39,045 nt of DNA from Planctomycetota bacterium (lineage in GTDB: Bacteria; Planctomycetota; Planctomycetia; JALXBF01): positions 1 to 39,045 of the forward strand of contig JALXBF010000166.1 in the NCBI GenBank assembly GCA_026991575.1. Reading direction: 5' to 3'. The notes beneath the pieces were generated by a model that saw only the letters and a program-made list of their open reading frames with translations, searched no databases and was not told the origin of the DNA. Position 1 is the stretch's first letter; each line of letters opens with the position of its first letter. The position numbers were made by a program, and so were the translations under genes. Shown here one piece after another: positions 15,688-18,183 of the stretch.

Positions 15688-16308
15688 ATGGCACGTCTGA
15701 GGCAAACGGTAGCGCTGGCCGCGATCGGGCTAGCAGCTTGCCTGCTTGCTGCGCCGGTCGCTTACGCGCAGCGGGATCACGATGCAGATGGCGGGCACCG
15801 AGGCACGGTAGGGCACCTTCGCCACGGGCAGCATCACCACGGGCACATCCATCATGCCGGATGTGCACACTTGCATGTGGGGTGGCTGTGCCCGTTCGGA
15901 ACAGTGGGCGTTGGCTATCATGCGTTTCCGGTGCCAGCAGTTATGGTTTTTGCAACCCCCTGGGGCTATGGCTACACCGCCTACCCGGCTCTCGGGTGGT
16001 ACGGTGCTGTCTACCGCCAGTACCTTCCTTCGTACCTCGTGACGCTATATGGCTTCAATTGGTACGGCGCGCCGGTGGTCGCGCCCGTATATGGCTGGTA
16101 TCCGTACGCGTTGGGAGCCTACGGGTACGCCCTCTCCTACCGCGGCTTTGTTAATCCGCCGGGCACGTCCGTGTACCAGTACCGGCACCGCACTCAGGTT
16201 TACGGCTCGCTGGTGATCTCAATCCTGCGGCATCAGCCCGCGGTATCGCACCGGGCCGTGCCCAGGGTGCGACCTGCCTGGGGGCACTTCCGTACCGGAC
16301 AGCGCTGA
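15688..16308 (+). CDS. secreted low-complexity protein (His-rich N-terminus, Tyr/Gly/Pro-rich core)
   Basis: GGAGG RBS before ATG 15688, a signal peptide ending in AYA, HGQHHHGHIHH, then many YG/GY/WYG units. Confidence 0.65.
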   Translation: MARLRQTVALAAIGLAACLLAAPVAYAQRDHDADGGHRGTVGHLRHGQHHHGHIHHAGCAHLHVGWLCPFGTVGVGYHAFPVPAVMVFATPWGYGYTAYPALGWYGAVYRQYLPSYLVTLYGFNWYGAPVVAPVYGWYPYALGAYGYALSYRGFVNPPGTSVYQYRHRTQVYGSLVISILRHQPAVSHRAVPRVRPAWGHFRTGQR

Positions 16309-16497
16309 TGTATGCTTACGTGCCCACGCCGCTGGGCAATCGCAGTGCCGCATCGAGCCTCTGGGCGATCTGTGCGGGCAGCCAACGGTTGCGTGCGCGG
16401 CTGCGGTTGGGTAAGCTCCGGTGCGAAGAGGTCGCCTCTCGGGGACCAGCCACGCGCGAACTTGCGTGCCCCGGCCGATCTGCCAGGCTAACAGGTC

Positions 16498-16526
16498 TTG
16501 CAATCGGCGGTGCCGGGGGGTAAGAT
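16498..16526 (+). promoter_or_regulatory. sigma70-type promoter (TTGCAA-17 nt-TAAGAT)
   Basis: TTGCAA at 16498-16503 and TAAGAT at 16521-16526 with an exact 17-nt spacer, in the gap between convergent genes. Confidence 0.6.
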
Positions 16527-16532
16527 GTTTGC

Positions 16533-16612
16533 TACTTTAGAGGAGTCAACGCCACAGGGGCCCGGGTGCGGTTTGGGGTGGCGCCCATCCGGGTTTCCCT
16601 GTGGCGTCTTTT
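16533..16612 (+). ncRNA. candidate small RNA (~80 nt), family not recognised
   Basis: Bounded by the promoter above and a terminator-like hairpin. No credible plus-strand CDS follows. Confidence 0.45.
16549..16612 (+). terminator. intrinsic terminator-like hairpin
   Basis: ACGCCACAGGG (16549-16559) pairs perfectly with CCCTGTGGCGT (16597-16607). An inner stem forms at 16560-16568/16586-16594. CTTTT follows on the plus strand only. Confidence 0.65.
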
Positions 16613-16623
16613 GTGCCCGACGG

Positions 16624-18183
16624 TCACCACTGTGTGATGGCGCGCCACAGGATTCGTTCCCCAGTAGGCCAACCCTTTTCCCGTTCTAATTCGGGATAGA
16701 AGCGGCGATAGATCAAGATCACTTCGGTCGTTCCGGCTGCGGCTTCGCCGGCGGCAAAAACAAACTCACCGCGTACGGTAGTAGCCGGTGCCAGCGTCGT
16801 ATCGACCTCACGGTCCGCCAACCAGAAGGGGGCCAGCCGGTTCCGGTGGTAGAAAACTCTGCCGAAAAACAACCCGGGCTTGCCCGCAAGCTCATAACCG
16901 AGCGATGCGGACCAGCCTGCCACGTCCGGCAGCACAGGCCCGGCTAGTCGGCGCAGCGCCATGCCGTGCCGGTCATAGGCTTGCACCAGCAGGAGGAAGT
17001 GTCGCTGAGGGAATCCGGTGGGCACGCGGTGACCGACCGCGCCGGCGCGGGCTGTGACGGTGACCTTCAGTTGGCCGTTGGCCAAGCTGCTGCGGACCTC
17101 GTCAACGCGCAAGGCACGGGACAACATGGCCGGATCGTCGCCACCTGGGAAGCGATGACTGGCGAGCTGCTCCCGTGGTCGCTCGATCCCGCCGCGCCCC
17201 GGTGCGGTATTCGATCGCCCGGTCGGGGGTGGCATGTGGCAGTGCTGGCAACTCTTGCCCTGGCGTGCAGCCGGGCTGCGCAGCCACTCACTGTAGGTAC
17301 GGTAAACGTGCACCCCGAGCAGCAGGCCTTCGTGACACGGCGCACAGTAGCGGGCGTCGCTGTAGACAGGCGCGTAGGCATCGCCTTCTGAGATCGCATC
17401 GGGGAGTGGGCCGAAGAAAGCCTGCTGATGATCGGGTGGCGTCAGGATCCGGTAGGCGTGTACGCCGTGCTGAAGCGGTAGCTTGCTGACGTCAACGTCG
17501 ACCACCTTGTGGCACAGGTCGCAGTGGATGCCTTCGCGCGCGACTCCGGTCAGCCGTCTGGGATCGGCCATGGCCGGGTCACCCAGGGCTGCTTGCGGAA
17601 AGTGGCACGGGGCGCAGACGCCTCGGACGTCGGGCCGGTCGCGGAAGAAAGCCCACCGCGGGGGAGCATCATCACGGCGGGTGCCGGTGCCATAAAGCAC
17701 ATCGAGAAGCTGCTCGTTGATGGCACTGGTAGCGTGCCGCGACGCAGCCCACTCACGGTACAGTTGCAGGTGGCAGTGACCGCACGCATGCGACTCATCC
17801 GCCTCCGGGCTGGGATCCACCCACCGGTAGCCAGGGCGGGAAGCCGGTAGGCGGCGCAGGCGCAGGATGATTGGATCGGTCAACACGCTGGTGCCGGAGT
17901 TGTAATAGCCAGGCGCAGCGGCCGTCACGGTCGCGCCTTCGGGCAGCTGCTCGGGCACGTGCAACCGGAAGCTGCCATCCGCATCTGCCACAGTGCCATG
18001 CCGGCTTCCCTGCAGACGCACCAGGGCACCGGCGACAGGCTGCCCCTGCTCATCAACCACGGTGCCGCGTACCAATGGTGTGGTCGGTGCCTGGGCCGAC
18101 ACGACAAGCGCGGCGCCGAAGAGCAAGACAACGCCCAGCGCGAACCGCTCGATGTGTCGTCGTGACCGCTCAGAATGGCTCAT
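16624..18183 (-). CDS. periplasmic multiheme (5 x CxxCH) cytochrome c with N-terminal carboxypeptidase-regulatory-like beta-sandwich
   Basis: Signal peptide, VRGTVVDEQGQPVAGALV...ADGSF, heme motifs CGHCH, CAPCH, CDLCH, CAPCH and CQHCH, plus EWAASRHA, TYSEW and GHRVPTG. Confidence 0.9.
   Translation of the reverse strand: MSHSERSRRHIERFALGVVLLFGAALVVSAQAPTTPLVRGTVVDEQGQPVAGALVRLQGSRHGTVADADGSFRLHVPEQLPEGATVTAAAPGYYNSGTSVLTDPIILRLRRLPASRPGYRWVDPSPEADESHACGHCHLQLYREWAASRHATSAINEQLLDVLYGTGTRRDDAPPRWAFFRDRPDVRGVCAPCHFPQAALGDPAMADPRRLTGVAREGIHCDLCHKVVDVDVSKLPLQHGVHAYRILTPPDHQQAFFGPLPDAISEGDAYAPVYSDARYCAPCHEGLLLGVHVYRTYSEWLRSPAARQGKSCQHCHMPPPTGRSNTAPGRGGIERPREQLASHRFPGGDDPAMLSRALRVDEVRSSLANGQLKVTVTARAGAVGHRVPTGFPQRHFLLLVQAYDRHGMALRRLAGPVLPDVAGWSASLGYELAGKPGLFFGRVFYHRNRLAPFWLADREVDTTLAPATTVRGEFVFAAGEAAAGTTEVILIYRRFYPELEREKGWPTGERILWRAITQW

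Follow-up and report, generated by a model that had tools for sequence, protein, structure and literature searches.

A candidate small RNA gene facing a multiheme cytochrome operon in one family of Planctomycetota

The locus and its features

The DNA analyzed here, referred to throughout as the window, is a contig of 39,045 nucleotides (nt) from the Planctomycetota genome GCA_026991575.1 (JALXBF010000166.1, C166 in our numbering), and our subject is a candidate small RNA (sRNA) gene within it, made up of a promoter-like motif, a long hairpin and a U-tract, which sits in a 315-nt gap between convergent genes at 15688–16308 (+) and 16624–18183 (−). The source genome (G000) is metagenome-assembled (191 contigs, 4.96 Mb, 64% G+C, 97.8% complete); a crude in-house caller gave 3280 genes with 81% of the sequence coding, and PSD1/DUF1553 domains number 21. 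The genomes available for close comparison are G001, which is the only other genome of the same family and belongs to a different genus, and G002 and G003, which belong to the same order. A sequencing run that matches the lineage carries the label “hydrothermal vent metagenome.” A third variant of the locus was not found in three DNA runs, which yielded the source contig and small near-identical fragments. The features of the locus are listed below with the basis of each assignment.

15688–16308, + strand: upstream co-oriented gene of 206 aa, rich in Tyr, Gly, Trp and His, ending 240 nt before the hairpin
16389–16417, + strand: second, weaker promoter-like motif TTGCGT-17-TAAGCT (8.8 bits by the position weight matrix, PWM, described below)
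16498–16503, + strand: −35-like hexamer TTGCAA, read in the sequence
16504–16520, + strand: spacer of 17 nt, a length kept in G001 and also found in 13 of 21 training promoters
16521–16526, + strand: −10-like hexamer TAAGAT, read in the sequence (TACCAT in G001)
About 16531–16534, + strand: predicted transcription start, from the spacing after the −10 box only
16531–16548, + strand: unpaired 5' tail with AGAGGAG, unpaired in the centroid fold and not conserved in G001
16549–16607, + strand: two-tier hairpin, also the intrinsic terminator stem, from folding
16557–16585 (29 nt), + strand: conserved core GGGGCCCGGGTGCGGTTTGGGGTGGCGCC, comprising the G-rich 5' arm and the apical loop, from alignment to G001
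16608–16616, + strand: U-tract CTTTTGTGC, read in the sequence
16624–18183, − strand: convergent neighbor of 519 aa with five CXXCH motifs, the last gene of its operon, from Pfam and translation

The hairpin and its resemblance to a terminator

The elements named in the original prediction, namely TTGCAA and TAAGAT separated by 17 nt, an unpaired segment, a two-tier hairpin and a terminal TCTTTTGTG, are all present as it described them. The unpaired segment TACTTTAGAGGAGTCA covers 16 nt (16533–16548), and the hairpin that follows consists of 11 perfect outer pairs, a UU bulge, 9 inner pairs (2 of them G·U) and 2–3 apical pairs, with an apical loop of 12–13 nt, UUUGGGGUGGCG. TCTTTTGTG stands directly 3' of the hairpin, from 16607/16608. 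The predicted 80-nt RNA folds with −42.7 kcal/mol (z −4.2) and the hairpin alone on the + strand with −41.5 kcal/mol (z −4.6), and in neither case did any of 200 shuffles fold as well. Read on the − strand, the window hairpin gives −34.0 kcal/mol and the sequence after it is TTGACTCCTCT, without a T-run.

A stable GC-rich hairpin with an immediate U-tract is the form of an intrinsic terminator, and it is found in the window (TCTTTTGTG) as well as in G001 (CTTTTATTT). Canonical intrinsic terminators are in use in the source genome, where a hairpin and a run of T4–T7 mark the ends of the tRNA and tmRNA genes. It may then be asked if the locus is a plain intrinsic terminator, serving the upstream + strand gene, both convergent genes, or both of these, next to which a promoter motif stands by chance. 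The hairpin with its TCTTTT does resemble the terminators that close the tRNA and tmRNA genes, no hairpin with a T-run lies nearer to the end of 15688–16308 on the + strand, its location between convergent genes is suitable, and comparably long hairpin terminators follow other genes of G000, for example on contigs C188 and C179. The candidate shares with the tRNA and tmRNA terminators a GC-rich stem-loop followed by a T-run on the transcribed strand, but differs from them in having about 24 pairs in two tiers as compared to 8–13 pairs.

The promoter-like motif

To describe promoters in the source genome we used a reference set of 52 tRNA genes with 90 nt upstream, together with the genes for 6S RNA, RNase P RNA, tmRNA and signal recognition particle RNA (n = 56). 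A strict form, defined as TTGNNN-N16-18-TANNNT, is found upstream of 22 of these 56 genes, and the consensus of these regions is TTGAC[CA]/TTGCC-N17-TA[GA][AG]AT; the usual form is TTGAC[CA] or TTGCC, 17 nt, then TAGAAT, TAGACT or TAAGAT, with G or A commoner at the third −10 position than the T of E. coli. TTGC-type −35 boxes precede several tRNA genes as well as 6S RNA (TTGCCC-17-TACGCT), and the tRNA-Phe promoter, TTGCCA-16-TAAGAT, has a −10 box identical to that of the candidate. A PWM built from 21 of the 23 strict matches at tRNA and 6S genes (two dubious ones were left out) scores the candidate promoter at 13.9 bits and its G001 counterpart at 12.1 bits, with a range of 12.5–20.5 bits for the training set.

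Measured against the promoters of the source genome, the motif is more than trivial. Matches of at least 13.9 bits occur at 0.19 per kb per strand in divergent gaps and 0.15 on the sense strand of tandem gaps, as opposed to 0.023 in convergent gaps and 0.026 antisense in tandem gaps, meaning that matches at the level of the candidate are 6–8 times commoner where promoters are expected than in convergent or antisense gaps. A match this good is present in 7 of the 442 convergent gaps, for which our own arithmetic gives about 3.7 expected at the coding-sequence rate, and this is a further point on the side of a plain terminator with a chance motif. A strict motif 5–40 nt before the hairpin arises in 44 of 5000 dinucleotide shuffles of the window gap. 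Promoter-to-terminator pairs 15–300 nt apart with nothing annotated between them number 20 on the same strand vs. 7 in the opposite-strand control. A generic promoter/terminator scanner called neither the promoter nor the terminator of the candidate; only 8 of the 12 positions of the E. coli consensus are matched by the promoter, and the loop is larger than the scanner allows. Judged on the source genome alone, the motif is a credible promoter, far from proven; the candidate does carry a promoter sequence of its own, the activity of which is predicted. The second motif upstream, TTGCGT-17-TAAGCT, which the original prediction did not mention, has no counterpart in the corresponding 584-nt region of G001.

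The unit in a sister genus

Orthologs of the convergent cytochrome gene were found by six-frame protein search in G001 (47% identity), G003 (44%) and G002 (39%). The unit in G001 lies next to, and on the strand opposite, the orthologous cytochrome gene, with its parts ordered, oriented and placed as in the window, and reads TTGCGA, a 17-nt spacer, TACCAT, 9 nt, a 50-nt hairpin and CTTTTATTT, with 21 nt from the cytochrome stop codon to the end of the unit (16 nt in the window). Alignment of the core (window 16557–16585) gives 27 identical columns out of 30 with a single 1-nt indel, and a local-alignment score of 43 against 20.5 ± 2.3 (maximum 29) over 300 shuffles; within it, the apical loop is identical in 12 of 13 columns. 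The second-best collinear alignment is the flank of the −35 box, AACAG(G)TCTTGC, which scores 23 against 19.6 ± 2.3. The spacer remains at 17 nt in both genomes despite indels relative to a shared TCGGCG. The G001 motif is the sole strict motif on either strand of the 584-nt region and one of four on its 6248-nt contig, and 63 of 5000 dinucleotide shuffles place a strict motif 5–40 nt before the G001 hairpin. This recurrence at the same place and with the same spacer argues against a promoter motif that stands by chance beside a terminator.

The substitutions between the two genomes preserve the structure. Among 15 shared base pairs, 8 are invariant, 5 carry one-sided changes by way of G·U, 2 are compensatory and none is broken, while sliding the 3' partners by 1–3 columns leaves only 32–67% of cells paired; with just two genomes the covariation statistics are powerless, so this conservation is to be read as structure-preserving with weak statistics. 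A reading by hand of each hairpin in its own best register suggests up to four compensatory pairs, which is not the count of the tool. The G001 hairpin reaches −31.7 kcal/mol (z −3.8) on the sRNA strand vs. −13.1 kcal/mol (z −1.2) on the operon strand. The G·U pairs make the structure strand-specific, and since promoter, stable fold and U-tract all lie on one strand, the RNA would be made from the + strand of the window. The 3' arm holds most of the differences (8 of its 16 columns, against 3 of 28 in the 5' arm and loop; Fisher p 0.009). It is the near-identity of the loop in these alignments that calls for a functional explanation, that is, for an extra constraint.

The 5' tail behaves differently. 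Between the −10 box and the hairpin the window has 22 nt and G001 only 9, and GGA occurs once in the window RNA, not at all in the G001 RNA and not in the conserved loop. The original prediction had suggested that an exposed, purine-rich 5' segment with GGA could serve as a seed or a protein decoy; because the tail shrinks and the GGA is absent in G001, this idea is unsupported, and what is conserved instead is the 5' arm and loop of the hairpin. Its proposal of a stand-alone sRNA holds up as far as the transcription unit is concerned, with promoter, hairpin and U-tract recurring in G001, and loses the exposed GGA segment. The comparison with relatives that it had recommended divides in the same manner, since G001 keeps the promoter and the hairpin with its pairing-preserving changes and does not keep the 5' segment.

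Comparison with ordinary terminators

Functional hairpins can be told apart from ordinary terminators by their conservation in synteny. As controls we took four strong hairpin-plus-T terminators of the source genome located 23–44 nt after a gene, three of them in convergent gaps, whose genes have G001 orthologs with 53, 86, 82 and 93% identity, and aligned the downstream gaps with the same scoring. Sequence conservation between G000 and G001 was not found at any of the four (scores of 17–21, z −0.3 to 0.3); one control pair has analogous hairpins at similar places, with a similarity that is non-significant. Given this lack of conservation at the controls, the candidate, whose neighbor is only 47% identical, is exceptional, and the terminator-only explanation loses most of its weight. 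A terminator with no other function would place no constraint beyond stem and U-tract, and here the loop and 5' arm are conserved: the score of 43 exceeds the shuffle maximum of 29, and the loop, on which termination puts no constraint, differs in one column of 13. The hairpin in G001 is moreover unstable on the operon strand, so it is not the terminator of that operon there. Unlike ordinary terminators, then, the candidate is conserved in sequence and loop across genera (0 of 4 controls are) and has a promoter-like element of its own 22 nt upstream. We consider it unlikely that the locus is a plain terminator, although as an additional role the hairpin probably does terminate the transcript of 15688–16308.

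A census of any TTTT after a folded hairpin of −15 kcal/mol or lower was set aside as too unspecific (1432 cases inside genes against 453 outside), and the distance statistics derived from it were not used.

Neighboring genes and other readings of the conserved hairpin

The upstream gene at 15688–16308 has a weakly positive coding score and an N-terminus that on reading resembles a signal peptide; its product has no Pfam or NCBIfam match, and a search of 30 relatives at E ≤ 1e-5 gave no ortholog. In G001 an open frame of similar composition on the same strand runs off the contig end, with no significant similarity to it (E 0.39). These frames bear on the possibility that the hairpin is a conserved element of the 3' untranslated region (UTR) of the upstream mRNA, or an sRNA processed from that UTR, without a promoter of its own. 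Such an arrangement would fit the co-oriented gene 240 nt upstream with no hairpin and T-run in between, as well as the similar distance from the stop of the frame to the −35 box (about 194 nt in G001, 190 nt in the window), and it accounts for conservation, strand and U-tract equally well. The upstream frames are, however, not significantly similar, and G001 has no ortholog at the threshold above. Nothing is conserved from the stop codon to the −35 box, which would be odd for one functional UTR, and the promoter motif with its preserved 17-nt spacer is left without explanation. We therefore regard a UTR origin as improbable.

The convergent 519-aa protein matches CarboxypepD_reg at its N-terminus and a cytochrome c7-like family in Pfam, alongside the five CXXCH haem motifs, and it has a weak match to the ExtKL-type multiheme (seleno)cytochrome of NCBIfam (37 bits, cut-off 250). 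Searched against genome and metagenome contig collections, it gave distant domain matches only, with at most 28% identity over long stretches. The order of the operon is kept in G001, with a PfkB/RfaE-like kinase (p384, 61%), a HEAT-repeat protein (50%) and the cytochrome (46%). A hairpin with a T-run was not found on the operon strand past the operon stop in either the window or G001, so the operon mRNA very probably runs into the RNA gene.

With the operon mRNA extending this far, the conserved element could in principle belong to the − strand, as a 3'-UTR structure, a C-rich Rho-loading site or a hairpin resembling a selenocysteine insertion sequence (SECIS) after UGA. The stop codon of the cytochrome gene is a TGA 16 nt away from the hairpin, the source genome has tRNA-SeC in addition to the weak ExtKL match, and the core is C-rich on that strand. 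In G001, however, an in-frame TAA lies 5 codons past the TGA and before the hairpin, the hairpin is unstable there, the G·U pairs of the + strand turn into A·C mismatches, and neither genome has a U-tract on the − strand. The SECIS reading in particular fails because of the TAA five codons later and the lack of a stable hairpin on the coding strand, and a bacterial SECIS element is thus ruled out. A − strand element of any of these kinds seems very improbable.

A site acting as DNA, for binding or recombination, would be in keeping with an element that each genome has once, in a convergent gap, and with the short palindromes of the core (GGGCCC, CCCGGG, GGCGCC). The core does not seem to resemble the AT-rich dif sites or the attC R boxes, for which no model was run. 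Changes that keep RNA pairing through G·U on one strand only would not be required of a DNA site, and promoter and U-tract flank the core on the same strand in both genomes, which makes this possibility as remote as the − strand element.

Coding potential, distribution and target searches

The candidate is non-coding by the measures we applied. All small open reading frames (ORFs) in the 315-nt gap have negative scores in a codon model trained on the source genome, in agreement with the earlier view that no credible + strand coding sequence follows the promoter, and no ATG, GTG or TTG lies 5–13 nt after GAGGAG, so that AGAGGAG lacks a start codon at the distance of a ribosome-binding site, as had also been noted. 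A 54-aa ORF from the ATG at 16525 to 16689 was rejected on its codon score and lack of conservation. A six-frame comparison of the window with G001 found no conserved peptide, and the conserved core contains a 1-nt indel.

The distribution of the unit is narrow. Among 401 genomes of the class, 2 contain the core pattern, and a covariance model (R1) run on 61 genomes gave clear matches only in G000 (71.9 bits) and G001 (67.2 bits); a third match, in G055 (21.4 bits, E 0.92), is noise. With one copy in each of the two genomes, it is not a repeat. The orthologous genes in G002 and G003 precede unrelated hairpins. Some 20–200 nt past the cytochrome stop in G002 (L130, contig C116 of that genome) is a large nested palindrome without a T-run, whose outer and inner repeats measure about 18 bp and about 29 bp, respectively; it could represent another type of terminator or a mobile hairpin element. 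When 40 relatives were searched with DNA at the BLAST level, three matches of 23–26 nt were all that came back, and the true G001 homolog was missed; we take these matches as chance, the two that were inspected being parts of unrelated sequences, of which one ends in a stop codon.

The family search recommended by the original prediction, with Rfam 15, produced no match at gathering thresholds across the whole window, and at E ≤ 10 the region 16250–16750 matched only an animal microRNA model (14.9 bits against a cut-off of 78). The recommended target prediction was likewise negative, with no target above shuffled queries. On the operon strand, nothing beyond the antisense overlap itself shows strong complementarity. 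Several exact 14-mers that also occur on other contigs fall within coding sequence there; three of them match one and the same stretch of the loop region, and because the mRNA has the same sense as the RNA at these three, they are not targets. Hfq (PF17209) was not found in the source genome by a search that detected it in 5 of 14 reference genomes used as a control, and the candidate does not qualify as an Hfq-dependent sRNA. In the portions of the full-text literature on small RNAs in Planctomycetes that were accessible, nothing specific turned up.

Interpretation and proposed mechanism

Taken as a whole, the locus is best explained as a family-restricted gene for a small non-coding RNA, and on the comparison of the two genomes we consider this explanation probable. 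The separate parts of it differ in strength. That the conserved element is a functional, strand-specific RNA hairpin is, in our judgment, very likely; its transcription as a stand-alone sRNA, from the promoter mapped above, is likely, and we infer that the promoter fires. A sigma-70-type promoter, TTGCAA-17-TAAGAT, would start transcription near 16531–16534, and the transcript would consist of a short 5' tail and one long, very stable hairpin, ending at its own U-tract near 16612–16616. The RNA is predicted to be about 80 nt in the window and about 62–65 nt in the sister genus. The hairpin would serve as both the terminator and the functional body, with selection acting on the G-rich 5' arm and the apical loop UUUGGGGUGGCG and not on the 5' tail.

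Several results weigh against an sRNA gene of this description. The start and end of the transcript are inferred from sequence motifs and folding. The PWM scores of the two promoters lie at or below the low end of the training promoters, the generic sigma-70 scan made no promoter call, with 8 of 12 E. coli consensus positions matched, and the alignment of the −35 region is non-significant by itself. About 7 of the 20 same-strand promoter–terminator pairs are expected by chance according to the opposite-strand control. The observed covariation, from two sequences only, is reached by 129 of 500 column shuffles, and much of the asymmetry between the 5' and 3' arms could be neutral C/U toggling opposite G. 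The duplex scan with loop and 5' tail around 3157 start codons did no better than five shuffled queries each. Finally, as there is no earlier hairpin with a T-run after 15688–16308 on the + strand, that gene's transcripts are probably terminated here as well.

As to what an sRNA transcribed from here might do, our most concrete guess, which we offer tentatively and at somewhat below even chances, is that it would act as a cis-antisense RNA against the 3' end of the operon mRNA. This guess is weakly favored because the only certain complementarity is to the opposite strand and the operon mRNA probably reaches the unit. Duplex-directed processing, stabilization or polymerase collision would be conceivable routes, with the apical loop as the first contact. 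A role of the loop in trans, by pairing with another RNA or by binding a protein, seems about as likely. A more elaborate scheme, to which we give little credence, is a switchable antisense device, in which a protein or small ligand would bind the G-rich arm and loop and so make termination at the hairpin conditional. If this were true, failed termination would send a long antisense transcript through the cytochrome operon in an excludon-like manner, and an unknown signal would be coupled to the expression of a respiratory operon while the promoter is constitutive.

The locus provides a concrete sRNA candidate with a mapped promoter, body and terminator, tied by synteny to a multiheme-cytochrome operon. 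For this uncultured family the analysis further supplies a serviceable promoter model (TTGAC/TTGCC-N17-TAGAAT-like) and an outline of its terminators. An sRNA consisting of a promoter and a terminator is ordinary in kind, so the gain is incremental.

Related systems and further candidates

RybB, MicA and OmrA/B are short enterobacterial sRNAs that consist of a 5' seed and a terminator hairpin. The candidate is similar to them in its length of 60–90 nt, its own sigma-70-type promoter, the terminator as a 3' module and the syntenic intergenic site. It is dissimilar in that its conserved part is the 5' arm and loop of the hairpin and not a 5' single-stranded segment, in the failure to find Hfq in the source genome, and in having no relationship by sequence or Rfam. 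GadY, encoded opposite gadX in E. coli, is a cis-encoded antisense sRNA at the 3' end of an mRNA. Like GadY, the candidate is convergent with its neighbor and overlaps the presumed untranslated 3' end of the mRNA with full complementarity; unlike it, the candidate is a single hairpin without homology to GadY, and its transcript overlap is predicted. RNAs of the CsrB/RsmZ type carry many GGA motifs, mostly in loops. The setting is comparable insofar as the source genome encodes two CsrA homologs and the window RNA has one unpaired GGA. A CsrA-sequestering sRNA of this type is nevertheless ruled out by a GGA count of 1 in the window and 0 in G001, with none in the conserved loop.

Another locus in the window, at 1040–1275 on the − strand, has a strong promoter match, TTGACA-17-TAGACT (1271–1243, 20.0 bits), and about 140 nt after it a hairpin (1102–1048) followed by TTCTTTTTCC, with no gene called in between and a GGGCGGCTCG...CGAGCCGCCC stem just past the predicted start. 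A DNA search of 10 relatives returned one 29-nt match only, in G007. This locus could be another small RNA or a leader. The 20 same-strand promoter–terminator pairs of the source genome, to be read against the 7 in the control, are further candidates for small RNAs or small ORFs, among them C9:1795–1865, C69:51051–51088, C109:23788–23823 and C14:83085–83145.

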